Positions 3,602-37,852 of a stretch of DNA of 40,717 nucleotides are shown piece after piece; within the stretch, counting starts at the first letter, position 1, and each line of letters begins with the position of its first letter. The stretch is from assembly GCA_046726415.1 (NCBI GenBank), contig JBKPAK010000035.1, positions 1 through 40,717 on the forward strand, given 5' to 3'. Position numbers and translations under genes: made by a program. Below the pieces are notes generated by a model, which saw only the letters and a list, made by a program, of their open reading frames with translations, did no database searches and had not been told where the DNA came from. Source of the DNA: Candidatus Methylomirabilota bacterium. Its GTDB lineage: Bacteria > Methylomirabilota > Methylomirabilia > Rokubacteriales > CSP1-6.

Positions 3602-4669
3602 TCAGCGTTCCGGCTTGGCCCAGATGCCCCGGTCCTGCATGAGCTTGATCTGTCGCTTGATGACCTTGTCGCGATACTCCTTGTGCTTCATGGGCACCCG
3701 CTTGAGGTAGAGGTTCTTCGGGTAGATGGGCCGCTCGTAGAGGATCTGGTACAGCTCGGTGCGCAGATCCTTCATCCAGTTGTCCCACTGCGCGCGCGCT
3801 CGGTGATCTCGGAGAGCCTCGATGTCGATCACCCCACCCACGTAGGTGGAGCCGGCCCCATAGTCCTGCCGCCCGACGATCTGTCCCTTGTAGTTGATGA
3901 TAAACGAACGACCACCAAAGGTGTCTATCGGGGTCACTTCCTCGGGGAAGAGGTAATACGTCCCCATGTTGGGGGCCACCAGGTAGAGGTTGTTGTCCAG
4001 CGCGCGGGCCCGGCTCTGGATCTCAAAGATCTCGTTCCCCGTGGCCGGATGGGGATAGGAGGCGCGATAGACGACCTCGGCGCCATTCATGGCCAGGGCC
4101 CGGGCGTTCTCCGGATACGATCCCTCGTTGGCCATCATGATGCCGAGACGGCCGATCTCGGTGTCCACCACCGGCCAGAAGGCCTGGAGAGTCCGCCCGT
4201 ATTTCTCCACCCACCAGTCGTAGACGTCGTGCGGGCACACCGAGTGCTCGACGGGGTAGAGGGGTGACACCTTGTAGTGCTGGAGGACGACCTTTCCCCG
4301 CGGGTTGATGATGAAGCCCACGTTAAAGAACCGATCGGGGAGATCGGGATGGCGCGCCTTGGCCTGAGCCATGACGAAGGCGTTGTACTCGCGGGCAATC
4401 TTGCCGAGTTCCTCCGTCTCCTCGCCGGGTATCTCGATGGCCCCCTCGCGGGCGAACTGCACATGGTCGAGATCCAGCACCTCGTCGTTGAACCCTTGCA
4501 GCGCGCCCTCCGGAACAGCGATCAGCCGGACGGGCAGATCCAGGCTCGACAGCCATGAGGCGGCCTTCACCAGGTGATGGAGGTGCTCGAGGTTGATCTT
4601 GATGTCCTTGCGCTTCCGGATACCCCGCACGGTGGGGATCAGTCCGACCGCGGTGTACGGCTTGATCAT
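3602..4669 (-). CDS. Nitrilase/carbon-nitrogen hydrolase superfamily protein (nucleophile Cys replaced by Ala)
   Basis: GGAGG RBS before ATG 4669; VPEG (Glu), HYK (Lys), DTEIGRLGIMMANEGSYPE..RALAMNGAEV, RARALDN. Confidence 0.88.
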   Translation of the reverse strand: MIKPYTAVGLIPTVRGIRKRKDIKINLEHLHHLVKAASWLSSLDLPVRLIAVPEGALQGFNDEVLDLDHVQFAREGAIEIPGEETEELGKIAREYNAFVMAQAKARHPDLPDRFFNVGFIINPRGKVVLQHYKVSPLYPVEHSVCPHDVYDWWVEKYGRTLQAFWPVVDTEIGRLGIMMANEGSYPENARALAMNGAEVVYRASYPHPATGNEIFEIQSRARALDNNLYLVAPNMGTYYLFPEEVTPIDTFGGRSFIINYKGQIVGRQDYGAGSTYVGGVIDIEALRDHRARAQWDNWMKDLRTELYQILYERPIYPKNLYLKRVPMKHKEYRDKVIKRQIKLMQDRGIWAKPER

Positions 4670-4783
4670 CGGTACGCCTCCGGCATGAAGGTGAAGCACG
4701 CGTCACTGAGCCATACTGCACCGCACTGTCAAGGAAACGGCGGTGCGAATGGCATGGTGTCCACGGCTCGCTGGGCAGACCTC

Positions 4784-6514
4784 CTAGCCCACCGTCCCCG
4801 CGGGCTCGCTGGGTCGCTCCACTAGCGTCTCCACGCGGGCGACGGTGTAGACGGCGAGGTTTCCCCGGCGGTTCCTGACGGTCAGCTCGTGACGCGGTAG
4901 CCCGCGCGCGTCGATACCCGCGCGGCGGGCCACGTCCTCGGTGATGACCATCTCACACGCGTACTCCTTGGTGAGCTGCTCGAGGCGGCTGGCCACATGT
5001 ACGGTATCGCCCACGGCGGTGAGGTAGACGCCGGGCCCATAGCCCATCCGGCCGACCACGACGTGGCCCACGTGAATACCGATCCCCATGCGCAGTGGCC
5101 CCGGCAGCTCATGAGCCAGCTCGTCGCTCAAGGCGGCCAGACCAGCCACGAGCGAGCGGGCCGCGGCCACCGCCTGGCGCGCCCCGACGTCGGGCCCCGC
5201 ATCGATCCCGAAGAGCGCCATGACTCCGTCACCAGTGAACTGGTTGGCGATCCCACCGGCCCGCTCGATCGCCGTCCCCGCCACCTCGAAATACCGGTTC
5301 AGGAAAAAGACGACGTCGTACGGGAGCTTGTGCTCGGCCACGCGGGTGAAGCCGCGAAGATCGGCGAAGAGCACGGCGACCTCCTGCTCCTCACCGGGCC
5401 GGTGGTCGGCGGGCACGACCGTGTCTGGGGGCGCCAGGGCCGGCAAGATGGGCACGACGGCGATGTCCCCGCGCGGGCGCAGTTGACAGGCCAGGCGCAC
5501 GTTCGGAGGCGCGCCCACGCGCTGGAGCACGCGCTCCTCGTCGAGGTTGGCGGCGGGAAGGCTCTCGAGGCCATGCAGAACGCGTACGCGGCAGGTCGAG
5601 CAGCGGCCCCGTCCGCCACAGACCGATGCGTGGGGGATATCGGCGCTCCGACTCGCCTCGAGCACGGTGAAACCGGGGGCAACCTGGACGATCCGGCCGT
5701 CAGGATAGCCGATGCGGATGGTCCGGCGGCGGGCGACGAGGGCGCGCGCGGCGCGGGCGAGCAGCACGGCGGCCAACGCCCCCCCGTAGATTTTCAGGAT
5801 CGTGTCCTGAGCGCGGACGAGGGCCGTGCGCTGCAGCGGTCCAGGAGCCTTCGTCACCCGCAGGGTCTCCGCCACCCATCCAGGTCTGGCCGCGAGGCGC
5901 GACACCTCGCGTCCTCCCTCGACGAAGCCGAGCAAGGCCAGCACGGGAAGGAGCACGGCAGCGCCGAAGAGCAGGGTGGAGGCGCGCGCGTACCACGGGC
6001 GGAAGCGGAGCCAGAAGTGGATGCCCATACACCCGTGGATCCACACCGCGATCAGGGTGAACGCTTGGCGCAGGCCCACCTCCGGGCTCACGTGCCACAG
6101 CCCCAGGAGGACCCGGGTATAGGGACTTTCGGTCCCGAACATGACATACGCCATCCGCGTGCCCATGACGTGGCCGAGCAGCAGGGGAGGAATGCAGAGG
6201 CCGAGCGTGGCTTGTGTGGTCTGCCAGAGTGGCATGCGCAGGGTGCGGCGCTCGTACAAGAACCAGAGGGCGAGTAGCGCGTGGATGATCAGCGCGCCGT
6301 AGAGGGCGGCCGTCCCGGGGGGACTTCGCCAGAGGCCCAGGAACCAATTCTGTCCCTGCTGCATGGCGGCGAGAGAGATCAGCCCGAGGGCATGATTCAG
6401 CAGGTGGGTGACGACGTAGGTGAAGAGGACCAGTCCCGCGCCGAGGCGGATCTGGCGTAATCCCAGCGAAGACCGGGCCACTAATCCGCGCGCTGACGCG
6501 TCAGCCACGACCAC
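4784..6514 (-). CDS. CyaC-like class III nucleotide cyclase: His-rich membrane (heme-b type) domain + 2Fe-2S ferredoxin + cyclase
   Basis: TM helices with THLLNH and WIHGCMGIHFW; CGGRGRCSTC...RLAC ferredoxin; FADLRGFT, GDG, GDTV.VASRLE cyclase motifs. Confidence 0.9.
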   Translation of the reverse strand: MVVADASARGLVARSSLGLRQIRLGAGLVLFTYVVTHLLNHALGLISLAAMQQGQNWFLGLWRSPPGTAALYGALIIHALLALWFLYERRTLRMPLWQTTQATLGLCIPPLLLGHVMGTRMAYVMFGTESPYTRVLLGLWHVSPEVGLRQAFTLIAVWIHGCMGIHFWLRFRPWYARASTLLFGAAVLLPVLALLGFVEGGREVSRLAARPGWVAETLRVTKAPGPLQRTALVRAQDTILKIYGGALAAVLLARAARALVARRRTIRIGYPDGRIVQVAPGFTVLEASRSADIPHASVCGGRGRCSTCRVRVLHGLESLPAANLDEERVLQRVGAPPNVRLACQLRPRGDIAVVPILPALAPPDTVVPADHRPGEEQEVAVLFADLRGFTRVAEHKLPYDVVFFLNRYFEVAGTAIERAGGIANQFTGDGVMALFGIDAGPDVGARQAVAAARSLVAGLAALSDELAHELPGPLRMGIGIHVGHVVVGRMGYGPGVYLTAVGDTVHVASRLEQLTKEYACEMVITEDVARRAGIDARGLPRHELTVRNRRGNLAVYTVARVETLVERPSEPAGTVG

Positions 6515-8201: not shown

Positions 8202-9365
8202 ATGTCCGACGACATCCTGCACGACCTGCGCGTCCTCGACCTCGCCACGACCATCGCCGGCCCGCACTGCACGCGGCTCCTCGCCGACCTCGGCGCTCGG
8301 GTCGTCAAGATCGAATCGCCCGAGGGCGATCTGATGCGCACACGTCCTCCTCTGCGCGATGGGGCCAGCAGCTATTTCGGGCAGCTCAACGCGGGCAAGA
8401 AGAGCGTGTCCTCGACCTCAAGCAGGCGGCCGCCGTGGACATCGTCAAGCGGCTGGCGCGTACCACCGACGTGCTCGTCGAGAACTTCCGGCCCGGCGTG
8501 ATGCAGCGGCTCGGCCTGGACTATCCCGAGCTCGTCGGCATCCAGCCCGCGTTGATCTACTGCGCCATCTCCGGCTACGGTCAGAGCGGCCCGTCGGCGC
8601 GCCTGCCGGCGTATGCGCCGGTCATCCACGCGGTGGGAGGCTACGACGTCGCGCACCTGTCCTACCAGGAAGGCCGGACGAAGCCGGACAACAACGTATC
8701 TTCATCGCCGATGTGCTCAGCGGAACGTACGCCTTCGGCGCCATCCTGGCCGCAGTGCACCAGCGCCAGCGCACGGGGCATGGGCAGCTCGTCGACGTGT
8801 CGATGCTGGAAAGCATGCTGACCATGACGCTCGCCGAGATCCAGCGGGCCCAGTTTCCCCTTCCGCCGCCCGGCCGACCGATGTTCGGCCCGATCGAGAC
8901 GCGCGACGGCTACATCATGCTAGCGGTGGCCAGCGAGCGGACGTTCGCCGACCTGGCCCGGGCGGCCGGGCGAGAGGACTGGCTCACGGACTCGCGGTTT
9001 GCCGTCTATGGCGACCGGCGGCGCAACTGGCACCTCTTCGTCGAGGAGCTCGAGCAGTGGTCGCGCCGGCTCACCACCGCGGAATGCCAGGCCGCGTTCG
9101 ACGGCAGCGGCGTGCCGTGCTCGCGCTATCGCACCGTGGAGCCATGGATGATCCCCAGCTCGCGCACCGCCACGCCTTCGGCGAGGTGCGGGATTCTGCG
9201 GGGGTGTTTCGCGCGCTCAACCCCCCCTTCCGGTTCTCGGCCGCCCGAGCCAGTGTTCAACCGTACGCGGCCACCCGCGGCGAGCACGGCAACGAAGTCT
9301 TGGCGGAGGCCGGCTACACGGCGCGCGAGATCGAGGAATATAGGAAGAGCGGCGTACTGGGCTGA
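8202..9365 (+). pseudogene. CaiB/BaiF class III CoA-transferase with three -1 frameshifts (pseudogene or sequencing error)
   Basis: Segments in successive frames: LRVLDLATTIAGP..NAGKKSV / LDLK..DVLVENFRPG..ISGYGQSGP / IADVLSG..DVSMLES / AMDDPQL..GEHGNEVL. Breaks at about 8410, 8697 and 9141. Confidence 0.85.
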
Positions 9366-9555
9366 CCTTCACCGGCCGGCTCGTCCTCGCGCATCCTGTC
9401 TGGGGAGCACGAGCTGCGCGTTACACTGCTGTCGTGGCACTGCGGAACGCGACCATCACGCTCGCTGAGGATGTGGCCCCGCTGGGCGAGGATGGGTGCG
9501 GCCGGCTCGGCGACGCGCTGGCGTTGCGGGTGGCAGTGGCGCGGCGTGGCTGATC

Positions 9556-10842
9556 GTGGCGACTCCCGACGTCGTCGTCGTGGGAGCCGGTGCCGCCGGC
9601 CTGGTGGCGGCCCGGGAGCTCACGCGGGCCGGGTTCGCCGTCCGCGTGATTGAGGCGCGCCGCCGCGTGGGTGGTCGCGCGTGGACCGAGCGCGAGACCT
9701 TCGGGGTGCCCATCGACCGCGGCTGCGCCTGGTTGCACGCGGCGGACCGCAATCCATGGACCGAATACGCACGGCAGCACGGCTTCACCGTCACCGAGCG
9801 TTCCCCGGACTGGCGGCAGTGGATCGGACGTGAGCGCGTGACCGCCGCGCTGCGTGAGCGTCTCGATGCGAGCTGGGATCGAGCGGTCGAAGCGATCGCA
9901 GCCACGGCCCGGGCCGGTCGCGACGTCCCCGCGTCCGAAGTGCTCCCGACCGATCTCGAGTTCCGGTCACTGTTCGACGCCAGCATCACCTGGATGATGG
10001 GCGTGGACACGCCCAATCTCTCCACGGCCGACTTCGCGGCCTCGGAGGACTCCGACGTCAACTGGGCGGTGCGCGAGGGGCTTGGTGCGGTGGTGGCCAG
10101 CGCCGCTCGTGACCTGGACATCGTGCTCGACTGCCCGGTCACCGCGATTGACTGGAGCGGGGCCCGCGTTCGCGTGGCGACCGCCCGGGGGGAGCTCGAG
10201 TGCCGCGCCGTGGTCGTGACGGTCCCCACGACCTTGCTCGTCCGTGGCGAGCCCGCTTTCACGCCACCGCTGCCGGTGGAATGCGCAGAGGCGTTTGCGA
10301 GGTTGCCCCTCGGCGTTGCCAATAAGGTGTTCCTCGAGATGGGGTCGGGGGCGCTCCCCTTCGAAGGAATCGTGAATGTCGTGGCCAGCGCCACCACGGC
10401 GCGCACGGTGAGCTTCACCGTGCGACCGGCGGGACAGGAGCTGATCCTCGCCTACTTCGGTGGCGACTATGCACGGGATCTCGAGGTCCAGAACGCGCTC
10501 GAGGCAGCCGCCCGCGAGGAACTCGTCAGCCTCTTCGGTGTCGAGCTTGGCCGTCGCATCCGGCGCAGTACGGCCACGGCGTGGGTCGGCGATCCCTGGG
10601 CGCGAGGCGCGTACTCGGCTGCGCGCCCAGGATTCGCGCATTGCCGGACGGTCCTGGCCCAACCCGTCGGCGAACGCATCTTCTTCGCCGGTGACGCCTG
10701 CACGGTTGAGACATTCGGCGCGATCCATGGCGCCTGGGTCTCGGGCGCCGAGACCACCCGGCGGGTTGTCGCCGCCCTGGCGGGTCGTCCGCAGCCTCTT
10801 GCGACCTCCGAACGTCAGGGCAAACCCAGCCCTCGAACCTGA
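9556..10842 (+). CDS. Flavin monoamine oxidase family FAD-dependent oxidoreductase
   Basis: VVVVGAGAAGL..VIEARRRVGGR Rossmann fold, DRGCAWLH, WVGDPWARGAYS, FFAGDA..IHGAW. Confidence 0.9.
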   Translation: MATPDVVVVGAGAAGLVAARELTRAGFAVRVIEARRRVGGRAWTERETFGVPIDRGCAWLHAADRNPWTEYARQHGFTVTERSPDWRQWIGRERVTAALRERLDASWDRAVEAIAATARAGRDVPASEVLPTDLEFRSLFDASITWMMGVDTPNLSTADFAASEDSDVNWAVREGLGAVVASAARDLDIVLDCPVTAIDWSGARVRVATARGELECRAVVVTVPTTLLVRGEPAFTPPLPVECAEAFARLPLGVANKVFLEMGSGALPFEGIVNVVASATTARTVSFTVRPAGQELILAYFGGDYARDLEVQNALEAAAREELVSLFGVELGRRIRRSTATAWVGDPWARGAYSAARPGFAHCRTVLAQPVGERIFFAGDACTVETFGAIHGAWVSGAETTRRVVAALAGRPQPLATSERQGKPSPRT

Positions 10843-10912
10843 CGGGGCTCATGGTCCAGAGGAGTATCGGTCGGACTCCGGTAGCCGAGCGCGTCTCACC
10901 AGGGAGGACGCC

Positions 10913-11871
10913 ATGATCGTCGACATCCATGCCCACTACTTTCCGAAGGCGTATAACGACATCCTCATGCGCATCGGCGGGCGCAGCCTGCCCGAGGCGG
11001 CGCGGCCGATCACCGCCCGGCCAATGCGGGAAGACGACCCGTCGGGAATGCCCACGCGTCTGTCGCAGATGGACGATGCCGGGGTGCAGATGCAGGTGCT
11101 CTCGCCGGCCGCGAGCCCGCCGTATGCGGAGAAAGAAGCCGATGCCGTCGCGGCGGCGCGACTCATCAACGACAGCTACGCCGAGCTCGCCAGGAAGTAC
11201 CCTGGCCGGCTCACCGCCTTCGTGTCGCTGCCGCTGCCCCACATCGAGGCCGCGCTGCGTGAGATGGAGCGCGGACTAGACCAGCTCGGCATGCTCGGGG
11301 TGTCGATGACGTGCTCGTGTTTCGACCGCTCGACCGCGGAAGTGGAGTTCGAGCCCCTGTACGAGGAGATGAATCGACGCGGCGCCGTACTGAACTACCA
11401 CCCGATCCAGAACGGCATCTGCTCGCCGATGATCAACGATTACCGGTTCACGGTCTCGGTCGGCGCCTCGCTCGAGGACAGCGCCATCGTGCTCCACCTG
11501 ATCGCTCGGCGCGTGCCGGAGCGGTTTTCGAGATCAAGTACGTCATCCCCCATCTGGGCGGCATCATCCCGATGCTGCTCCAGCGGCTCGACAATCAGGC
11601 CCCGCGACAGCACCCGGACCTGTCGGAGCCTCCGAGCGCAACCGCCCGGCGCTTCTACTACGACACCGTCGGCCACGGCTCCCACGCTGCGCTACTCTGC
11701 GCGTGGAAGGCGTTCGGCGCTGACCACTTGGTGGCGGGGAGCGACTACCCGGTCTTGCTCGCGTTCGAGACGTATCGGCAGACGTTTCACTACATTCGAG
11801 AGTGCGGCCTGCCGGTCGAGGACGTCGACAAGATCCTCAACCACAACGCCCAGATGCTCCTGGGCGTTTGA
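10913..11871 (+). pseudogene. Amidohydrolase-2 family (ACMSD/decarboxylase-like) with one -1 frameshift at about 11530
   Basis: GGAGG RBS; DIHAH and NYHP in the first frame; IPHLGG, YYDT and GSDYP in the second frame. Confidence 0.85.
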
Positions 11872-11967
11872 GGATTTGGGGGGCGACCACCTTCCCCTCG
11901 GGATCCTCGAGGTACAGGCTGGTGCTCACCGCCTGATCGGCGGTGGCTACGATGGGCACGCCAAGTG

Positions 11968-12903
11968 TCACTTGACCTGAGGAATCACCGCGGTGGCGAG
12001 GTGCTCGATGATGGCGAGCATCTCCTCGACCTTGCCCGTGCGGAAATCGTAGGTGAGCTGCTCAATGCCGATGTCTCGACAGCGGCGAGCGTCGTCGATC
12101 ACCTCTTGGGTCGTGCCGATGAGGCTGCCGCCGGAGCGGCGGAGCACTTCGCCCGACAGCCCGATGTCGGTGAAGTGCAACGCGCGCTTGAGCGAGATCG
12201 CAACGCCCTTCGGATCGCGACCAATGCGCTCGGCTTCGTCGCGAAGGTAGGGCAGGTGCTGCGCCACGTAGTCGGGCGTCTGGCGGGTAGGGTGCCAGGC
12301 GTCGCCGTGGCGGACGGAGCGCCGGACCGCCGCCTTGCTGTGGCCCCCGACCCAGATGGGCGGATGCGGCTTTTGGAGTGGCTTCGGATACATCGCGATG
12401 CCGTCGAACTCGCAGAAGCGACCCTGGAAGGCCGGTCGTTCCTCGGTCCACAGGGTCTTGAAAACCTGGATGTATTCATCGGTGACGGGTCCGCGATCCT
12501 TGTAGGACGCCCCGAGCACCTGGAACTCCTTCTCCAGCCAGCCTACCCCAACACCGCAGATCAACCGCCCCGCCGAGAGCACGTCGAGGCACGCGAGCAT
12601 CTTCGCCTGCACGATGGGATTCCGGTACGGGACGATGATGACGGTGGCGCCGATCTTCACCGTCTTCGTCACCGCGGCGGCGTAGGCGAGGAGCGTGAAC
12701 GGTTCGAAGAAGTTCTCGGTAGAGGCCAGCGGAAACGACCCGTCCGGGGTGTACGGATACTGCGTGGTTCCCTCTGTGGGCAGGATGAGGTGGTCGCCCG
12801 TCCAGAGCGATTCGAACCCAAGCGCCTCGGCGCGCTGGACGAAACGAATGACGTCGGTCCCGGTCACCGATCCGGCACTCGGGATCCCGACGCCAAACCG
12901 CAT
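11968..12903 (-). CDS. LLM-class (probably F420-dependent) oxidoreductase
   Basis: MRFGVGIP..AEALGFESLWTGDH, LDVLSAGRL..GVGVGWLEKEF, PKPLQKPHPPIWVGG. Confidence 0.9.
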   Translation of the reverse strand: MRFGVGIPSAGSVTGTDVIRFVQRAEALGFESLWTGDHLILPTEGTTQYPYTPDGSFPLASTENFFEPFTLLAYAAAVTKTVKIGATVIIVPYRNPIVQAKMLACLDVLSAGRLICGVGVGWLEKEFQVLGASYKDRGPVTDEYIQVFKTLWTEERPAFQGRFCEFDGIAMYPKPLQKPHPPIWVGGHSKAAVRRSVRHGDAWHPTRQTPDYVAQHLPYLRDEAERIGRDPKGVAISLKRALHFTDIGLSGEVLRRSGGSLIGTTQEVIDDARRCRDIGIEQLTYDFRTGKVEEMLAIIEHLATAVIPQVK

Positions 12904-12917
12904 GCGCCCGTTCGACC

Positions 12918-14600
12918 TCAGCCGCGCTGCGGTGCGCGGAGCACCCGGCCGGGAAAGGCGCCGGTATGCTGGCCATGATCGAAGACGGCCTCGCCGCTCA
13001 CGACGACGTACTCCACACCCTCCGCGCGCTGCACCCGGCGGGGTGAGCCGTTCGGGCCGTCGCGCGTGATCTCGTCCTCCCTGACGCCGATCCGCGCGAG
13101 ATCGAAGACCACGAGGTCGGCCACCATGCCTTCGCGCACCAGCCCCCGGTCGCTCAGGCCCATGATGCTCGCGGGCTGGAAGGTGAAGCGGCGGACGGCA
13201 TCTTCGAGGCTCAGGAGCTGCCGCTCGCGCACCCACTCGCCCAGCACGTAGCTCGACTCACCGGCGGTGCAGAAGTTTGTGTTGAGATGCGCGCCGGCGT
13301 CGGTCTGGGAGGGGATGGCGTGGCCTGTCTTCACGTACTCCGCTAGCTCGACGTCTTCCTCCCGTGAGCGGGACTGCAGGAGGAACTCGGTCTCCAGCTT
13401 CTCCTCGACGGCGAGATCGAGCATCACGTCGGCCACGTGCTTGCCCTGGGCCGCGGCCAGGTCGGTGAGGGTGCGCCCCTCCAGGGCGCGGTTCTTCTCG
13501 AGGGTGGCCTTGCTGACGATGATCGACTGCCACTTGATGAACCGCCCGGGCACCCCAGGCCGGCGGCGCTGCCGCTGCATGGCCGCTTCGCGAAGCTCCG
13601 CGCGCTTCTCGGGATTGCCGAGGAGCGCCATGCGCTCGTCGAACGGGGCGGCCATGGCCACATCCCACACGTCGAGGTTGGCGAAGTAGGTGGTCTTCTT
13701 GAGCTTGAAGCGCGGATTGAAGGGGATGGCGCGGAGAAGGTTGTAGAGCTGCGCGCCCTGCCTCGTTGCCCCCTCCACGTAGCTCCGCGCGCTCGCGTCG
13801 AAGCCGAGAAAGAAGACGGGACGGCCGCTCGTCTGCGCCACCTCGAAGAGGTGCTGCCGATCGGCCTCGTCGGGCTGGCCGGCGCCGGGCGGCAGGATCT
13901 CGATGATGCCCCGGTTGAACTCCCCCAGGGTGCGACCAAGCGCGATGCGCTCGTCGTTGACGGCGAGCCGCGTGGGTACTGGCTGCCCCTGCGGGCCGGC
14001 GTGGGTCGGCGACACGGTGGTGCTCCAGCCCCACGCCCCCTCCTCGAGGGCCCCGCGCAGGAGGCCTTGCATGGCCGCGATCTCGTCTGGTGTGGCCGCG
14101 CGGTCCCACGCCGCCTTATCCATGACGCTGAGCCGCAACGGGTTATGACCGACGAGGGGCATGATGTTCACGCCGAGCCCGATGTCGATGGCCTTGAGGA
14201 ACTCGTCGAAGCTCTGCCAGGTCCAGGGCAGCACGGCGCTCAGCGAGCGCACGGGCAGGTCCTCGACGCAGCAGAAGGTGGCGAGCATCGTCTCCCGGTG
14301 CTCGGGCCGCAGGGGGGCGAGAGTCAGCCCGCAGTTGCCCGTGAGGACTGTGGTGACGCCGTGCCAGCTGGAGGACGTGCAGAGCCGGTCCCAGAAGGGC
14401 TGGGCATCGTAGTGCGTGTGGAGGTCGATGATGCCCGGGGCCACGAAGAGCCCCTCGGCGTCGATCGTCTTCTCCGCCCGCCCGCCGATGCGGCCGATCT
14501 CGGCAATCCGGCCGTCCTTGATGGCGACGTCCGCTCGATAGCGCGAAAAGCCCGTCCCGTCGACGACCATCCCGTTCTTGATCAGCAGGTCGAAAGGCAT
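12918..14600 (-). CDS. N-acyl-D-amino-acid deacylase family amidohydrolase
   Basis: DLLIKNGMVVDGTG, APGIIDLHTHYD, GNCG, TDAGAH, DRGLVREGMVADLVVFD. Confidence 0.9.
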   Translation of the reverse strand: MPFDLLIKNGMVVDGTGFSRYRADVAIKDGRIAEIGRIGGRAEKTIDAEGLFVAPGIIDLHTHYDAQPFWDRLCTSSSWHGVTTVLTGNCGLTLAPLRPEHRETMLATFCCVEDLPVRSLSAVLPWTWQSFDEFLKAIDIGLGVNIMPLVGHNPLRLSVMDKAAWDRAATPDEIAAMQGLLRGALEEGAWGWSTTVSPTHAGPQGQPVPTRLAVNDERIALGRTLGEFNRGIIEILPPGAGQPDEADRQHLFEVAQTSGRPVFFLGFDASARSYVEGATRQGAQLYNLLRAIPFNPRFKLKKTTYFANLDVWDVAMAAPFDERMALLGNPEKRAELREAAMQRQRRRPGVPGRFIKWQSIIVSKATLEKNRALEGRTLTDLAAAQGKHVADVMLDLAVEEKLETEFLLQSRSREEDVELAEYVKTGHAIPSQTDAGAHLNTNFCTAGESSYVLGEWVRERQLLSLEDAVRRFTFQPASIMGLSDRGLVREGMVADLVVFDLARIGVREDEITRDGPNGSPRRVQRAEGVEYVVVSGEAVFDHGQHTGAFPGRVLRAPQRG

Positions 14601-24840: not shown

Positions 24841-25527
24841 CTAGGGGTATGGAAGTCGCTCGCCGGCTCCGTACCAGACGGGTTCGGCGCCTCGGCGGAA
24901 GACCTTCACCCGTCCGCGGCCGATCACGGTCGCCCGGCCGTCCTCGACGCGGACCATGGTCTGCTCCTCGATGCCGAAGACGGGGTTGCCGTTGACCGCG
25001 TGGTACTCCCGAATGCGGTCGTCGCGCGTCTCGCTGCCCGGGGCCATGGCGGGATCCGTCTCGGCGTAGTGAGGATTGATGTTGAAGGGAACGAGCCCGA
25101 GCGCCTCGAAGCGGTCGAGGGCCACCACGTTCCAGTCGTTCGTGGTGAGGATCGTCGGACCCGCCACGTTCGAGCCGGCGCTGCTTCCCAGGTAGGGCAC
25201 GCCATGGTGGACGCGTTCCTGGATCGCGCCGAGCAGGCGCGATTCGCGCAGCCGTTTCAGCAGGGCATAGGTGTTGCCACCACCCACGAAGATGGCCTCG
25301 ACGGATTCCAGCGCCTTGATCGGCTCCGACTTCCAGTACACGTGCGTCACCTCGAGGCCGATCGGCGCCAGCGCTTCGCGCACGCGGTCGCAGTACAGAC
25401 GCTCGTCGGCGAGGCTGCCGGCGCTGACGAAGCCCACACGGCGCCGCGGTTCGAGGAACGCGTCCATGGTGTCTCGACAGTGCTCGAGCAATGGGCGGCC
25501 GGAGTTGCTGATGAGGAGGGCGCGCAT
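24841..25527 (-). CDS. pepE: Dipeptidase E (peptidase S51)
   Basis: MRALLISNS, FVGGGNT, GSSAGSNV, TTND, FNINPHY, ETRDDRIREY. Confidence 0.92.
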   Translation of the reverse strand: MRALLISNSGRPLLEHCRDTMDAFLEPRRRVGFVSAGSLADERLYCDRVREALAPIGLEVTHVYWKSEPIKALESVEAIFVGGGNTYALLKRLRESRLLGAIQERVHHGVPYLGSSAGSNVAGPTILTTNDWNVVALDRFEALGLVPFNINPHYAETDPAMAPGSETRDDRIREYHAVNGNPVFGIEEQTMVRVEDGRATVIGRGRVKVFRRGAEPVWYGAGERLPYP

Positions 25528-26063
25528 CAGAGCACGTGCAGGAACGGTCGCGGGGCGAGCGCCTCCGCATTCCAGAAGCCGGTTTCGGCGAACCACGCCC
25601 GGGCCTGGGCGGCGTCCGCCGTCCGGACGAGGGCCAAGGTTCCACCATCCTCGAAGAAGCCGCCGAAGGCGATGCGGCCGGCGCCGCGCATCTCGATCAG
25701 AGCGAACTGGGCCATGGAAAGATCGGTGGTTGGCCCCTCGACGATCGTCACCCGGCGCGAGCCATCGAGCACAACGGGCGGCATCTCCCATGGTTCCACG
25801 AACTGGGCGAAGCTGCGCGGCGTGTACGCGGTCCACGCCCCACCCGTCCAGTACGGATCCTCTTCCATGGCGTTTTTGATTTGCCACGGCTGCTGGAGGC
25901 GATAGAAGAGGTCAGCGCTCCGGCCGTCCGGTGCTGGCCCGCCGCCGATCAGGATGCCGGCCATGCGCAGTCCCTGGAGCCGCTCGATGTGGGCGCGGCG
26001 GAGGGCCTCGCGGCGCGCGAGGTAGTCGTCTGCCGTGGTGACGGCGATGTGGTAGACGATCAC
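25527..26063 (-). CDS. YciI-family protein (tandem YciI-like domains)
   Basis: YLARREALRRAHIERL..IGGGPA..EEDPYW, then a second half with FGGFF..A.AWFAETGFW; TGATG coupling to pepE. Confidence 0.75.
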   Translation of the reverse strand: MIVYHIAVTTADDYLARREALRRAHIERLQGLRMAGILIGGGPAPDGRSADLFYRLQQPWQIKNAMEEDPYWTGGAWTAYTPRSFAQFVEPWEMPPVVLDGSRRVTIVEGPTTDLSMAQFALIEMRGAGRIAFGGFFEDGGTLALVRTADAAQARAWFAETGFWNAEALAPRPFLHVL

Positions 26064-26173
26064 CTTTCGACGGTTGCGACTAACTCCCGGTCACACCAGG
26101 GAGAAGACCGCAACCCCGCTCCGTTTCTGGCGGTTATGTGCGGACCGCCTTCTCTCACCCGCCCCTCATTCTA
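26064..26173 (-). promoter_or_regulatory. -10 element plus two-hairpin 5' leader of yciI-pepE
   Basis: TAGAAT at 26173-26168; hairpin GGCGGT-CCGCACATA-ACCGCC (26149-26129); hairpin GGTTGCG..CTCCC..GGGAG..CGCAACC (26115-26072). Confidence 0.5.
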
Positions 26174-26332
26174 TCGACCGATGACAGGTCTTGCGCGATT
26201 CTGCTCGCCTTGCTGCAACCGCTGATCCCCCGCACCAGTGGGAACAGAGACGTATACCACGTCCCCGAGCTTGCGCGGGTTTCAGGCGTCAGACCGGCGA
26301 GGCGAAGCGGCGCGAGAAGCATCGGTGTCGAA

Positions 26333-26411
26333 CCGGCGCCAGGCGATGACCGCAAAGGGGGAGGGAAAGCAACCACCCACCTGGCACCGGGGGGCTCACA
26401 CATCGAACCCC
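26333..26411 (-). ncRNA. Candidate structured RNA: 7-bp hairpin followed by a 21-bp stem with a UUUCCCUCCCCCUUU loop
   Basis: The long stem closes on the minus strand with six G-U pairs and one bulge; those pairs would be A-C mismatches on the plus strand. Confidence 0.5.
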
Positions 26412-26634
26412 CAGCACACGACGGCCCTTGCCGCCGCCTCTGCGGGCTCTGCGAGATTCGACGAAGGGGCGGCACTCTCTATTCGCTCGCGGAGGTCGAA
26501 TCGGCGTTCGCTCCACGTAAGTCAGCGCCGCGATTGGCACTCGCTATGACGGCGATGTGCTCGACGATCACGCGGTGCCGTTCGGAGTCAGAGTGTAGGG
26601 GGCAGAATACCACCGCCGTGCTACTGTGATCCCT

Positions 26635-29223
26635 GTGGATCTCCTCGAGCGTTTCCGCTCGAAGTACCCGTTTCCCCTCGACGATTTCCAGGTGGAGGCC
26701 GCGCGCGCCATCGCCGACGGGCAGTCGGTGATCGTCTCGGCGCCCACGGGAGCGGGCAAGACGCTGGTGGCGGAGTTCGCCATCCAGGTCGCGCTCGAGA
26801 GCGGCCGGCGCCTGGCCTACACCACGCCGCTCAAGGCGCTCTCCAACCAGAAGTTCGGCGACTTCACGCGGGCCTTCGGCGAGGACTTGGTGGGGATCCT
26901 CACCGGCGACGTCAAGGTGAACCCGCGAGCGCGGCTGCTGGTGATGACCACCGAGATCCTGCGCAACATGTTCTATTCGGGCGGACTCGACGAGTTGGGC
27001 TACGTCGTTCTCGACGAGTGTCACTACATGGGTGACGCGGGGCGAGGCACGGTGTGGGAGGAGATCATCGTCAATGCGCCGCGCGACGTTCAGCTGGTGG
27101 CGCTGTCCGCGACCGTGGCCAACGTGAAGGAAATCGCCGACTGGATCTCGATCGTACACGGGCCGATTGCCGCCATCTACCATCCCGAGCGTCCCGTCCC
27201 GCTCTCCTACGCGGTGGCCGATCTCGCGGGCGAGATTCACGACATGGCCCGGGTCCGCGACGGCCGCGCGCGCCTGGTGGGCGACGAGTCGCGCGGCCAC
27301 GATGCGCGGGGTCGCTGGTACACGCGGCGCGTGGTATCTCCCGTGGTGCTCATCGAGGCCCTGGAGACGGGCGGGTGGCTGCCGGTCATCTACTTCATCT
27401 TCAGCCGGGCAGGCTGCGAACGGGCGCTCGATGACGTACTGGGGGAGGGACACAGTCTGCTGGCCCGAGAGCAGCGGCGGGAGGTCGACGTGGCGATCCA
27501 CGAAGCGCTGCGGGAGATGCCTTCCATGGCCGAGTCGCCGCTCAACCAGAGCATCCTCCAGGCACTCGGTCTCGGCGTGGGGCTTCACCACGCGGGCATT
27601 CTGCCGAGCCTGAAGCGGCTGATCGAAACGCTTTTCGAGCGCGGCCTGTGCAAGGTGGTCTTCGCCACCGAGACGATGGCCCTCGGCATCCACATGCCGG
27701 CGCGTAGCGTGGTGCTCCAGGGGCTCACCAAGCGCAGTGAGGAGGGCTTCCGCTCGCTGTCGCACAACGAGTTGACCCAGATGGCGGGGCGTGCCGGTCG
27801 GCGCGGGATCGACCCCGAGGGGCAATGCGTCATCGCCCTCGACGTGCGCGATGGCGTGGAGGACATCCTGCGCGTGGTGGACGGCTCGCCGGAGCCCATC
27901 GAGAGCCAGTTCAAGCTCGGCTACAGCTCGGCCGCCATGCTGCTCGCCACGGGGGCGCCGCCCGAAGTGTTGCGCCGGCGCATCGAGTCTTCCTTCGGCC
28001 AGTACCAGAATCTCAAGCGGATCCGCGATGTGGAGGCCGACGTGCACGCTCTCGAACAGGCGCACGCCGAGGCGAGCCGCTACGAGGCGCCGTGCGGAGA
28101 GTTCGAGCGCATTGGTCGCTACCGGCAGATCCGGCAGGAGGTGGAGCAGCACCGCCAAGCGCTCGGACGCGGCGCGCGGCGGGGGGAGCGAACGGTGCTC
28201 GAAGCCGAGCGGGGGCGCCTCGCGCTCGTCCGGCGCAAGGGCGCCCCCACGCTGGCGCTCATCCTGGGCGTCCACTCCATTCGCGGTCATCGCGCCATCG
28301 TGGAAGCGCTGCTCCCTCACGGCGCGGTCATTCGCGCGAAAGCCGGCGTCATCAAGCGGATCTTCTGGGCGACGCCGCCCCTGCACGTACCGCTCGATCG
28401 CGGTCGAGAGGGACGCGGCCTCCGGCACCTGGCCGAGAACCTGTCACGGCTCTCGGTTGGGGAATTGATGGAGCGAGAGCGGGCCCGCGGCCCGGAGGCC
28501 GCACTGGCCACGATCCCATGTCACCGCTGTCCGTGGGGGGCGACCACGCGGTGCGATCAAGCCTGGCGGGAGGTGGAGCAGACGCGCGATCGTCTGGAGC
28601 GGCGCCGCCGGACCCTCGATGGCCTGCGCGGGGCGTACTGGCAGGAATTTCTGCGCGTGGTGGAGGTCCTCGAGCAATTCGGCGCCGTCCGGGAAGGAGC
28701 GCTGCAGGCGAAGGGACGTCTCATCGCGGGCCTCCGGCACGACAACGAACTGCTGGTGGCCGAAGCGGTGTCGCGGGGAATTCTCGCCGATCTCAACGGA
28801 CCCGAAGCGGCGGCGTTGTGCTCCGCCCTGCTGGAGGAATCGCGCTCGGGCGATCCCAACATCGCCCGCGGCTTTCTGCGCAGCCGTCCCAGACTGAAAA
28901 GGAAGCTCGAAGCGCTCGGCACCGTCGCCGAGACCGTCGCCGCCGCCCAGCGCGCGCGCCATCTGGCCATGCCGGTCGGCGTCAATCCGGGATTCGCGCC
29001 CGCGGTGTTCCGCTGGGCGGCCGGCGACGATGACTGGTCGGGCATCGTGGAGACGGCTTTTGGAGGGCATGAGGGCGACCTCATCCGCGCCATGCGGCGG
29101 CTCATCGACCTGCTTCGCCAGCTCGCCGAGTCGGCCGAGGTGGGCGCCGAGCTAGGCCGGTTGCTGGCGCAGGCGGCGCGCGTCGTCGACCGCGGCGTCG
29201 TCCTCGAATCTGCCCTCATCTGA
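26635..29223 (+). CDS. helY: Ski2-like DEAD/DEAH-box RNA helicase (HelY family, DSHCT C-terminus)
   Basis: APTGAGKT, TPLKALSNQK, DECH, LSAT, FIFSRAGC, HHAG, FATET, QMAGRAGRRG, EGDLIR..DLLRQL. Start is GTG 26635 or 26626. Confidence 0.92.
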   Translation: MDLLERFRSKYPFPLDDFQVEAARAIADGQSVIVSAPTGAGKTLVAEFAIQVALESGRRLAYTTPLKALSNQKFGDFTRAFGEDLVGILTGDVKVNPRARLLVMTTEILRNMFYSGGLDELGYVVLDECHYMGDAGRGTVWEEIIVNAPRDVQLVALSATVANVKEIADWISIVHGPIAAIYHPERPVPLSYAVADLAGEIHDMARVRDGRARLVGDESRGHDARGRWYTRRVVSPVVLIEALETGGWLPVIYFIFSRAGCERALDDVLGEGHSLLAREQRREVDVAIHEALREMPSMAESPLNQSILQALGLGVGLHHAGILPSLKRLIETLFERGLCKVVFATETMALGIHMPARSVVLQGLTKRSEEGFRSLSHNELTQMAGRAGRRGIDPEGQCVIALDVRDGVEDILRVVDGSPEPIESQFKLGYSSAAMLLATGAPPEVLRRRIESSFGQYQNLKRIRDVEADVHALEQAHAEASRYEAPCGEFERIGRYRQIRQEVEQHRQALGRGARRGERTVLEAERGRLALVRRKGAPTLALILGVHSIRGHRAIVEALLPHGAVIRAKAGVIKRIFWATPPLHVPLDRGREGRGLRHLAENLSRLSVGELMERERARGPEAALATIPCHRCPWGATTRCDQAWREVEQTRDRLERRRRTLDGLRGAYWQEFLRVVEVLEQFGAVREGALQAKGRLIAGLRHDNELLVAEAVSRGILADLNGPEAAALCSALLEESRSGDPNIARGFLRSRPRLKRKLEALGTVAETVAAAQRARHLAMPVGVNPGFAPAVFRWAAGDDDWSGIVETAFGGHEGDLIRAMRRLIDLLRQLAESAEVGAELGRLLAQAARVVDRGVVLESALI

Positions 29224-34927: not shown

Positions 34928-37852
34928 GTGAACGACCTCGAGCAGGCACTCCGGAAGGTCATCGCCGGCGACGTCCGCTTCGACCCGTTCTCCAAGCTCC
35001 TCTACTCGACGGACGCGTCGATGTACCAGGTAGAGCCGCTCGGGGTCGTGGTCCCGCGTGACGCCGCCGACGTGCAGGCCGCGCTGGAGGTGGCGCGTCA
35101 GCACCACGTCGCCGTGCTGCCCCGCGGCGGCGGCACCTCGCTGACCGGCCAAACCGTCAACCGCGCCCTCGTCCTCGATTTCTCCGCTCACCTGAACCAG
35201 GTGCTCGAGGTCAACACCGACGAGTTGTGGGCGCGGGTCCAGCCCGGGTTGGTGCAGGACGAGCTGAACCATCACGTGCGCCCGTTCGGACTGCTCTTCG
35301 GCCCCGATACCTCCACGTCCAATCGGGCCACCCTGGGCGGCATGCTGGGCAACAACTCCGGCGGTTCGCATTCCATCACCTATGGCCTCACCGTGGACCA
35401 CGTCATCGAAGTGACGGCGCTCCTCGCCGACGGCACGCGGGTGGTCTTCAAGGAGCTTTCGCCCGGGGAGTTTGAGGCCAAGCGCGCGCTGGCCACCCTG
35501 GAGGGCGACGTCTACCGCGCGGTGGCCCGTCTGCGCGACGCGTATACAGAAGAGATCGGGCGGCGCTACCCGCCATACTGGCGGCGGGTCGCTGGCTACA
35601 ATCTCACCGAGTTGCTGGCCGGACCGGAGAGCGCGGTCTTCCGCCATCCCACGGGTGGCGCGGCGCCGGCGAACGGATCCGCGGCGCGGCCGTTCAATAT
35701 GGCGCGCCTGATCGTCGGCTCCGAAGGTACGCTGGTGACCATCCTCGAGGCGAAGGTCCGGCTATGCCGGCGGCCTACAGCCACGGCCCTCGACGTCATC
35801 CACTACCGCGACATGCTCGAGGCGCTGGAATCCTCGCAGCCTATTCTGGAAACGGGGCCGCACGCCGTAGAGCTCACCGACAAGCTGATCCTCGACCTCG
35901 CCCGCGGCAACATCGAGCAGTCGCAGCGGATGGGTTTCGTGCAGGGCGATCCCGAGGCCATCCTCATCGTCGAATACGCGGGCGACAGCAAGGCCGAGGT
36001 TCGCGGCAAGGTGGATGCGCTGGAAGCGCTCCGCCAGCGCCGGCACTTCGGTTACGCGGCTTCCGTCGCCGTGGATTCGGCCGAACAGCAGTCGATCTGG
36101 AAGCTGCGCAAGGCGGGTCTGGGTCTGCTGCTCGGCATGAAAGGCGACAAGAAGCCCATCGCCTTCGTGGAGGACACCTGCGTCGAACCTCGACATCTGG
36201 CCGAGTTCGTCCCGCGATTCCAGCAGATCTTCGCCAAGCACGACACGGTTGGCGCGTACTACGGGCACTGTTCGGTCGGATGCCTGCACATCCGACCGGT
36301 CATCGACCTCAAGACGCCGCGCGGGCTCGAACAGGTGCGGGCCATCGCCGACGAGATCTTCGATCTGGTGGGGGAATATCACGGGACGATCTCCAGCGAG
36401 CACGGCGACGGGCGGGCCCGCAGCCCGTATCTCGAGCGCATGTATGGGCCGGCCATCATGCAGGCGTTCCGGGAGCTCAAGGGAGCCTTCGACCCGGAGA
36501 ACCGACTGAACCCCGGTAACATCGTGGCCAGTCCCAGCGTGACCGAGCACCTGCGCTACGGCACGTCGTATCGGACGTGGGAACCGAAGACGCTGCTCGA
36601 CTTCTCCGGGCAGGGCGGCTTCGCGGCGGCCATCGAGATGTGCAACGGGGTCGGGGTGTGCCGCAAGAAGCTGGAAGGGACCATGTGTCCTTCGTACATG
36701 GTCACCAAGGACGAGGAGCACTCTACGCGGGGCCGGGCCAATGCCCTGCGCGCGGTGCTATCCGGCAAGGTCCCGGCAGCGGAGTTCACCGGCCGGCGCC
36801 TCTACGAGGTCATGGACCTCTGTCTGGAGTGCAAGGGCTGCAAGGCCGAATGCCCGTCCAACGTGGACATGGCCAAGCTGAAGTACGAGTTCCTGCACCA
36901 CTACTTCGAGGCCAATGGATTGCCCCTGCGCAACCGGCTGTTCGGCCGCATCGCCGAGCTGAACGAGATGCAGGCCCGGGCGCCGCGGCTCAGCAACTGG
37001 CTGGCGCGCCGGGCGGTGGGCCGTCGGCTGCTCGGGGCGATGGCAGGGATCGATCCACGGCGCCCCCTGCCGGCGCTGGCTCCGCAGACGTTCACCCACT
37101 GGTTCGCCCGCCATCGTCCGGCGCCGACCGCGCCGCGCGGCGAGGTCGTGCTCTTCCACGACACCTTCGTGACGTACAACACGCCGGCCATCGGCCAGGC
37201 CGCCGTAGCCCTCCTGGAACACGCCGGCTATCGCGTTCTCCTCGCCGACAAGAAGTGCTGTGGCCGGCCGATGATCTCCAAAGGCATGCTGACCCAGGCG
37301 CGCGAGCATGCGGGCTGGAACGTGGAACGGCTGCACCCGCTGGTGGCGCGCGGCGTACCCGTGGTGGGCCTCGAGCCGTCGTGTCTGCTCACGCTGCGCG
37401 ACGAGTCGGTCGATCTGCTCGGCACCGACGAGGCCCGCGCGGTGGCCCGTGAAAGCTATCTGCTCGAGGAGTTCCTCGTCCGCGAGCGCAGGCGCGGGCT
37501 GGAGCTTCGCTTTCGCGAGCATGGCCGGCGCGCCCTGCTCCACGGCCACTGTCACCAGAAGGCCATGGTCGGAACGGCTCCCACCGTGGCCGCCCTGCGC
37601 TGGGCCGGCTTCCAGGTGGCCGAGGTCGATTCGGGCTGCTGCGGGATGGCCGGTTCCTTCGGCTTCGAGAAGGAGCACTACGATGTCTCGGTCGCCGTGG
37701 GGAATCGGAGGCTGATTCCCGCCGTCACCGCCGAGCCCGCGTCCACCGAAATCGTGGCGCCGGGCATCTCCTGCCGCCAGCAGATCGACCACCTCGCCGG
37801 GCGCCGGGCCAGGCACCCCGCAGAAGTTCTCTGGGAAACACTCGCGCGCTGA
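34928..37852 (+). CDS. FAD-linked oxidase fused to an Fe-S/CCG domain (GlcD/GlcF-like, YdiJ-type hydroxy-acid dehydrogenase)
   Basis: YSTDASMY, PRGGGTSLTGQ, GSEGTL, GCLHIRP, SEHGDG, CNGVGVC..MCPSY, CLECKGC..ECP, CCG and HGHCHQ motifs. Confidence 0.92.
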   Translation: MNDLEQALRKVIAGDVRFDPFSKLLYSTDASMYQVEPLGVVVPRDAADVQAALEVARQHHVAVLPRGGGTSLTGQTVNRALVLDFSAHLNQVLEVNTDELWARVQPGLVQDELNHHVRPFGLLFGPDTSTSNRATLGGMLGNNSGGSHSITYGLTVDHVIEVTALLADGTRVVFKELSPGEFEAKRALATLEGDVYRAVARLRDAYTEEIGRRYPPYWRRVAGYNLTELLAGPESAVFRHPTGGAAPANGSAARPFNMARLIVGSEGTLVTILEAKVRLCRRPTATALDVIHYRDMLEALESSQPILETGPHAVELTDKLILDLARGNIEQSQRMGFVQGDPEAILIVEYAGDSKAEVRGKVDALEALRQRRHFGYAASVAVDSAEQQSIWKLRKAGLGLLLGMKGDKKPIAFVEDTCVEPRHLAEFVPRFQQIFAKHDTVGAYYGHCSVGCLHIRPVIDLKTPRGLEQVRAIADEIFDLVGEYHGTISSEHGDGRARSPYLERMYGPAIMQAFRELKGAFDPENRLNPGNIVASPSVTEHLRYGTSYRTWEPKTLLDFSGQGGFAAAIEMCNGVGVCRKKLEGTMCPSYMVTKDEEHSTRGRANALRAVLSGKVPAAEFTGRRLYEVMDLCLECKGCKAECPSNVDMAKLKYEFLHHYFEANGLPLRNRLFGRIAELNEMQARAPRLSNWLARRAVGRRLLGAMAGIDPRRPLPALAPQTFTHWFARHRPAPTAPRGEVVLFHDTFVTYNTPAIGQAAVALLEHAGYRVLLADKKCCGRPMISKGMLTQAREHAGWNVERLHPLVARGVPVVGLEPSCLLTLRDESVDLLGTDEARAVARESYLLEEFLVRERRRGLELRFREHGRRALLHGHCHQKAMVGTAPTVAALRWAGFQVAEVDSGCCGMAGSFGFEKEHYDVSVAVGNRRLIPAVTAEPASTEIVAPGISCRQQIDHLAGRRARHPAEVLWETLAR

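Follow-up and report, generated by a model that had tools for sequence, protein, structure and literature searches.

Integration at the end of a protein-coding gene, with duplication of a short coding stretch, is seen in some prophages and islands, the streptococcal prophages being an example. Decayed integrative elements that have lost the genes for integration and transfer while keeping attL and attR are described as CIMEs, or cis-mobilizable elements (PMC5704250). Among elements recombining with tRNA genes, the 5'-distal type of recombination is stated in PMC6563490, which cites Zhao and Williams 2002, to be "considerably less frequent" than the 3'-distal one. The window, i.e., the whole stretch of 40,717 nt of DNA analysed, contains a 508-bp insertion at the 5' end of a yciI-like gene. 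The insertion very probably represents the remains of a tyrosine-integrase integrative element, one of a family common in the genomes of Rokubacteria/Methylomirabilota, and, as far as can be judged from its sequence, it is a CIME-like relic. The locus comprises the following features:

25527 to 26063, minus strand: yciI-like gene, an intact ORF of 178 aa with a YCII domain (PF03795, E 2.4e-07) and a GC3 of 0.85
26039 to 26063, unstranded: identity block on the P'-arm side, formed by the initial 25 nt of the working yciI, with codon 4 TAC, the ancestral type
26064 to 26240, plus strand: P' arm, recognised by alignment to contig C114, by an nhmmer profile and in a five-member alignment (A3)
26241 to 26480, unstranded: middle segment of ~240 nt with no detectable gene remnant
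26481 to 26546, plus strand: probable degenerate P arm and a 24-nt spacer, the arm being indicated by a restricted nhmmer search, a composite motif and an alignment (A4)
26547 to 26571, unstranded: identity block on the P-arm side, a vestigial second yciI start in the ancestral position, with codon 4 GAG
26572 to 26625, unstranded: ancestral divergent helY/yciI control region, conserved in genome G002 according to an alignment made by eye (L007 against the window)
26626 to 29223, plus strand: gene for a helY-like DEAD/DSHCT helicase, divergent from yciI

The yciI-like protein shares 79% identity with its orthologue from the same genus (L097), and its gene is followed by one for a peptidase S51. 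A gap of 562 nt separates it from the divergently oriented helY. The duplication of the yciI start noticed in the initial annotation is real: the 25-mer at 26039-26063 recurs at 26547-26571, 508 nt away start to start, with 23 of the 25 nt identical. Both mismatches fall in codon 4, which is TAC in the working gene versus GAG in the upstream copy, and the longest exact stretch common to the two copies is 13 nt. The frame of 30 codons said to open from the upstream copy is likewise there and leads to a dead end (26571-26479, minus strand). As to the extended -10 box assigned to this copy, the sequence TGGTATTCT is indeed present at 26612-26604 on the minus strand, with TGGTATCCT as its equivalent in G002, but its role as a promoter was not backed by a consensus scan for promoters and terminators, which gave zero calls over 25900-26750. 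The control region also contains a CACAGTAGCACGG box adjoining the helY start. The 7.6-Mb genome has 73 isolated direct repeats that are 20-60 nt long, lie within 3 kb and differ at no more than three positions; four of them, the yciI repeat included, belong to the class of 25 nt with two mismatches. Since repeats of such strength are not rare genome-wide, the significance of the yciI repeat must rest on the comparison with relatives.

The closest comparison is provided by G002, a genome of the same genus. From the helY side of the window, the alignment with its locus extends as far as and across the upstream copy, and yciI aligns from these 25 nt onward; G002 thus has a single copy of the block and no insert. 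Only ~63 nt lie between its helY and yciI (L097). The 54 nt which in the window lead from helY to the upstream copy align with G002, including the TGGTATTCT/TGGTATCCT box and the six bases preceding the start codon, and the upstream copy therefore occupies the ancestral position of the yciI start. The helY–yciI gap is short in 13 of the 14 syntenic relatives read and holds an SDR gene in the remaining one; these relatives include L009 from an unpublished genome (G011), of which the conclusion is independent. The empty site, a search for which was one of the checks proposed in the initial annotation, is accordingly found as a one-copy, insert-free allele in G002 and in 12 other syntenic relatives, and the window carries, relative to it, an insertion bounded by direct repeats of the target.

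A second sample was drawn from species representatives titled Candidatus Rokuibacteriota, Rokubacteria or Methylomirabilota and comprised 35 yciI loci. The helY gene lies within 200 nt of yciI in 28 of them, farther away in four, and is missing from the locus in three, while a second copy of the locus's own yciI-start 25-mer within 1.5 kb occurs in none (0/35). No other element at the yciI site and no full-length element with a yciI block was found among the matches listed for 158 family genomes or in the 35 further loci; the pattern count over the 158 genomes takes in the unpublished genomes G047, G011, and G167. GAG at codon 4 was met in none of the yciI starts read, either in the syntenic relatives or in the 35 further loci, which argues that the working start is probably the host's own and the vestigial upstream copy the one borne by the element. 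Where the helY–yciI gap of relatives is long, it holds genes, namely an SDR gene in G005, G006, G008, and G018 and, as read by eye, an endonuclease-like gene in G003 and a protease-like gene in G013. A decayed neighbour gene was rejected as the origin of the insert, which, unlike these gene-filled gaps, carries no coding signal.

Between the two block copies lie 483 nt. Codon-position GC bias is absent from all six frames of the insert (GC3 of 0.61-0.68 versus 0.85-0.87 in the neighbouring genes), and none of its seven stop-to-stop frames gave a Pfam match, in agreement with the earlier statement that no credible protein gene is situated between the copies; neither integration nor transfer genes are present inside. 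A search for tRNA and tmRNA genes in the insert was negative, as were searches of plasmid and phage collections for a match to it. The insert is single-copy in its own genome. The proposed BLASTN search for further copies yielded none in the own genome, in 40 relatives or in the 158 family genomes, the matches in the latter being at chance level only (22-61 nt in 25 genomes). Exact-pattern scans of collections of genome and metagenome contigs, from which records of the own genome may be left out, returned zero. In agreement with the initial annotation, no recombinase was found among the 22 high-GC3 ORFs of the window that were scanned.

Several candidates for the content of the insert were rejected. 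The spacing of 508 nt is close to the 537-nt length of yciI, which might suggest a decayed tandem duplicate of this gene, yet the similarity ends sharply after 25 nt, and no similarity to yciI was found elsewhere in the insert. Weak collinear tblastn matches hinted at an integrase remnant in the middle segment, but the profile test was negative (an HMM of the integrase C-terminus scored -0.2 bits on the six real frames versus up to 3.5 on shuffles). Elsewhere in the window, in 8435-12920, a 128-aa ORF is likely to be a gene fragment, since it matches only positions 76-144 of the 366-position CoA-transferase III profile; in the ~4 kb following it, no ORF of at least 90 codons passed the GC3 filter.

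The reference element of the family is a complete island of genome G129 (L059 1706-18957, contig C2), in which 17,215 nt lie between perfect 37-nt repeats corresponding to nt 1-37 of tRNA-Thr(CGT). It comprises, in this order, the displaced host half-tRNA, the P' arm, an orphan ORF, two HTH_17 genes, AAA_25 and HNH genes, a gene coding for a 1212-aa SNF2/methyltransferase, HTH_3, a gene for a 360-aa tyrosine integrase (Phage_integrase), the P arm, and the intact tRNA gene. This order of genes and arms indicates that the target tRNA receives its promoter and 5' half from the element. The P arm contains two TCAGCAC repeats, GGTAGAATC, and CGTAAGT. The SNF2 helicase/methyltransferase carries four tandem repeats of 195 nt (INT_rpt match).

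Integrases of the family were found in 25 of 159 family genomes at E <= 1e-30, the genome of the window having two, on contigs C278 and C283. A tRNA gene lies within ~330 nt downstream of the integrase, on either strand, in 21 of the 26 loci read, and its occurrence on both strands implies that the family has the usual 3'-replacing as well as the uncommon 5'-replacing geometry. Full-length suppliers of a promoter and a tRNA 5' half were found in G129 (Thr-CGT), G081 (Arg-CCT), G157 (Arg-TCT), and G082 (Lys-TTT). Integrases sharing 68% identity occur at different tRNAs. In the circular form, attP is proposed to have the order integrase, P arm, target-derived identity block, P' arm. The block of most family members is half a tRNA gene up to the anticodon loop, and a promoter and tRNA 5' half come from the P arm in those cases in which tRNA and integrase have the same orientation; in the window the block is the first 25 nt of yciI. 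The two integrases of the own genome (C278 4641-5645 and C283 5150-6058) are 42-43% identical to that of G129; no tRNA gene is found within 330 nt downstream of either, and the C-terminal coding tails contain repeats of the GGCCAG type in place of the TCAGCAC of relatives.

The homology of the insert to this family is most evident in its P' arm. A low-stringency search of the genome gave one weak match, of ~110 nt (26107-26217, plus strand, in the part adjoining the working yciI start), to contig C114. The local alignment of the two sequences scores 30 versus 15.2 ± 1.8 for shuffles (maximum 23.5, n = 200), a 16-mer at 26188-26203 is identical in both, and in both the similarity begins within a few nucleotides of the junction. 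In C114 the P'-arm segment is located directly 3' of the 5' half of tRNA-Arg(CCT), cut after the anticodon loop; the same tRNA gene is intact in G007 and G001. Upstream of the half-tRNA lies a frameshifted integrase remnant, and downstream an orphan ORF, an HTH_17 gene of the excisionase type, and a DUF3102 gene. A sequence model built from the window and C114 gave eight weak matches over 150 family genomes, of which those in G157 and G129, representing two other genera, looked real and the other six appeared coding-like by eye. In both G157 and G129, the P' arm again follows a tRNA 5' half, that of Thr-CGT.

The whole segment 26064-26240 of the window also resembles the equivalent DNA in G157, G129, and G022, and the motif CCGCAAC..CGC (26108-26119 in the window) is common to all five aligned members. 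An nhmmer profile constructed from C114, G157, and G129, with the window left out, matches 26098-26204 with an E of 8.2e-05 genome-wide, and this is its sole non-self match; with a profile from the foreign genomes alone (G157 and G129) the window match has an E of 0.82 and is second in rank genome-wide. The P' arm of the insert is thus homologous to that of integrase-bearing relatives. It contains an inverted repeat (26072-26078/26110-26116). A family-wide hairpin was considered and rejected, as inspection by eye revealed the inverted repeat in three members (the window, C114, and G157) and failed to reveal it in the other two, G129 and G022. The TCAGCAC arm repeats of relatives are recognisable in neither arm of the window (alignments A3 and A4).

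The P arm lies on the same strand as the P' arm and adjoins the upstream copy of the block. It comprises remnants of arm repeats, a mutated -10 box of the tRNA type, in which C replaces a conserved A (GGTCGAAT versus GGTAGAAT of the relatives), and the CGTAAGT leader motif. An nhmmer search restricted to the insert gave a P-arm match at 26481-26526, weak at 7.5 bits, reached by 0 of 1000 shuffles, and missed genome-wide: with profiles of four, five or 12 sequences, the window P arm was not detected at E <= 10 in the whole genome, and the four- and 12-sequence profiles missed it even in the restricted search. The composite motif GAATC-N11-15-GTAAGT, derived from relatives and picked after the family had been seen, occurs once in the 40.7-kb window (26498-26522, plus strand) and in 0 of 100 shuffles; its three occurrences in the 7.6-Mb genome are those in the window, in the P arm of C114, and at one place elsewhere. 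The restricted search and this single motif point to homology of the window P arm with that of the family, less firmly than is the case for the P' arm. The view expressed in the initial annotation, of a small non-autonomous element integrated at the 5' end of yciI with attL/attR-like boundaries, is in this way supported both by the empty site and by the attP-arm homology of the two ends, which for the P arm is only probable. The order of block, P' arm, ~240 nt, P arm, and block is exactly that of an integrated member of the family minus its genes.

Protein-gene ends as identity blocks are not unique to the window, since G022 (L094 9776-11641, contig C246) harbours a decayed member of 1845 bp bordered by an exact 21-nt repeat at the last codons of a GNAT-like gene. 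Its P' arm is matched with an E of 1.8e-05, its P arm contains the TCAGCAC repeat twice, and the remnant of an integrase is also present. This insertion alters the C-terminus of the GNAT-like protein and parts its gene from the next, DinB-like one. A further protein-gene 5' target may be found in G007, where on contig C100 (L093 ~4600-4920) an integrase and P arm have downstream of them, within ~100 nt and in place of a tRNA, the start of a same-strand gene for a thiamine-diphosphate enzyme; the other end of the island is not reached on this contig.

Other remains of the family are associated with tRNA genes. In the own genome, tRNA-Arg(CCT) is split, its nt 1-39 with the promoter lying on C114 (~35640-36010; L039 15640-16011) next to island DNA, and its nt 40-70 on C32 (14140-14170) behind an unrelated gene end. 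Both halves carry small indels, and of the 47 tRNA/tmRNA genes that ARAGORN found in the assembly none is an intact tRNA-Arg(CCT). No block duplication is visible at these halves, which indicates that junctions in the family are not all tidy. The other end of the insert was compared with the C32 junction, and no likeness was found. In G157, contig C327 (L050 ~1329-1690) has, between two host genes, a relic of ~400-450 nt with the integrase 3' end, the P arm, the tRNA-Thr 5' half, and the P' arm, i.e., in the attP order, as expected for the eroded junction of two tandem islands. In G007 and G001 (L061 7368-7463 and L062 9138-9234), a P arm of the island type, with two TCAGCAC repeats, GGTAGAATCGA, and TCTCGTAA, precedes the intact tRNA-Arg(CCT), and no integrase motif was found near these genes; they may run on a promoter left by a vanished island.

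The insertion would have arisen by recombination of an attP-borne 25-nt block with the chromosomal start of yciI, presumably catalysed by an integrase. Recombination inside the block would place the element in the chromosome between two copies of the block. A crossover in the nine bases at the start-codon end would leave TAC in the host copy and GAG in the element copy, with no later mutation required; it would fit equally well if the block had been duplicated and the dead copy had then acquired two substitutions. The integrase and cargo genes would have been deleted later in place, or else an already gutted copy could have been moved in trans. That the insert is single-copy and its arms are degenerate favours decay in place. 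Given the degeneration of its arm repeats and the difference of its blocks at two of 25 positions, the relic has probably lost its mobility.

The outcome would be arranged identically (block, P' arm, P arm, block) if a circular or linear fragment with an attP region had entered with no integrase involved, either through the 25-nt homology (Campbell-type, RecA-dependent) or by break-repair copying. Such an entry would agree with the lack of an integrase at the locus, and 25 nt is not far from the shortest homology that homologous recombination can use. It would still need an element with the yciI block situated beside the arms, which is a trait of site-specific elements, and the same layout in G129 and G022 is tied to integrase genes; this route is therefore considered improbable. 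With integrase-made entry as the preferred origin, the consequences for yciI can be outlined. The insertion has put 508 nt between the gene and its original promoter and leader, and the P' arm now lies immediately upstream of yciI. The initial annotation regarded yciI as restored by the element with a new promoter; as the working start is probably the host's own, the gene was severed from its promoter, not restored. A TAGAAT hexamer (26173-26168, minus strand) faces outward to yciI from inside the conserved block of the P' arm, with TAAAAT as its counterpart in C114 and GAAAAT in G157 and G129, and a further hexamer, CAGAAT, is located at 26203-26198. The conserved A/T-rich hexamer TAGAAT is a plausible candidate for the new promoter of yciI. 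The mutated promoter of the P arm faces helY.

A broader role for the arms was also considered, in which they would form a constant scaffold for the exchange of blocks of 21-39 nt and the relic would act as an antisense and promoter-swap switch for yciI. As a scaffold, they would allow related integrases to be re-aimed from the anticodon loops of tRNA genes to the ends of protein genes; as a switch, the P-arm promoter, which normally drives the tRNA half, would transcribe a 25-nt antisense to the yciI start. Such a role is regarded as quite unlikely.

Slightly less likely still is a functional structured RNA, whether a long leader of yciI or a guide, decoy or antisense RNA using the upstream copy. 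A local inverted repeat does lie in the insert 8 nt before the yciI start codon, and the P-arm promoter of relatives would read through the block in the antisense direction. In the window, though, the -10 box of this promoter has C for the conserved A, and the insert is absent from all relatives, so that no conservation backs a function. The several hairpins reported earlier proved to be weak, folding of the whole insert giving z-scores of only -1.7 and -2.0, and Rfam searches were negative for the intergenic region at E <= 10 and for the whole window at gathering scores. A known cis-regulatory RNA is indicated neither by an Rfam family nor by conservation across orthologous loci. The guide or decoy RNA put forward as an alternative in the initial annotation likewise found no support, the Rfam search being empty and the anatomy resembling neither IS110 nor IS605. 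With regard to bridge/seek RNAs of IS110 or omega RNAs of IS200/IS605, there is neither an Rfam match nor a recombinase or TnpB in the window; a reading as IS110 or IS200/IS605 was rejected, since the 25-nt duplication is present whereas an insertion devoid of a long duplication is expected.

A MITE or a DDE transposon with a long target-site duplication would also appear as a short non-coding insert flanked by a direct repeat, and some IS families generate long duplications. Terminal inverted repeats are absent from the insert, however (its end-to-end alignment scores 6.5 versus 7.95 ± 1.4 for shuffles), it is single-copy in the genome with no copies in the 158 family genomes, and its ends match instead the attP arms of an integrase element, which makes such an origin scarcely credible. 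An artefact of assembly, conceivable for a metagenome-assembled genome of 352 contigs with an estimated contamination of 4.66%, has a negligible chance of being correct, as the longest exact match between the block copies, of 13 nt, is too short to mislead an assembler and both arms have the order and orientation expected of an integrated element, with a hint, and only a hint, added by five sequencing runs from five studies, in which 0.71-0.89 of the words sampled from a stretch consisting half of insert are present. Among the 22 runs listed, 20 hold part of 25800-26800 and six hold at least half of the sampled words, these figures being shares of words and not evidence on junctions, empty alleles or habitat.

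An integrase-made origin would explain the odd gap of 562 nt between the divergent genes as a scar of site-specific integration and would make the locus a clean natural case in which a mobile element, itself gutted since then, has cut a host gene, yciI, from its promoter. The analysis has incidentally defined an island family with recognisable P and P' arms in uncultured Rokubacteria/Methylomirabilota, including the complete 17.2-kb member of G129. It targets tRNA genes of either orientation, in part with the uncommon 5' geometry in which a promoter is supplied, and in two cases the ends of protein genes. This should be useful for the annotation of islands and relics in Rokubacteria/Methylomirabilota, and it provides a modest lead on the change of target by integrases.

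The resemblance to CIMEs lies in the flanking repeats of the att type, in the lack of integrase and transfer genes, and in the derivation of the insert from a family bearing integrases in the same and related genomes. Nevertheless, the insert is far smaller (483 nt), holds little beyond the two attP arms and comes from another host phylum, and its degenerate arm repeats make mobilisation in cis doubtful. With the islands of the 5'-distal tRNA type it shares the remains of a promoter in the P arm, its full-length relatives supplying both a promoter and a tRNA 5' half. It differs from them in having as its block 25 nt from the very beginning of a protein gene, which read antisense to the P-arm promoter, and hence the target gene is not reconstituted by the element. 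As with prophages at gene ends, the ORF is preserved by the duplication of a short coding block, and separation of the host gene from its control region can result; in contrast to them, the window holds only a gutted relic, and the family is otherwise directed to tRNA genes. The object found in the window is thus not a new kind of system but a known kind of feature with an unusual target.
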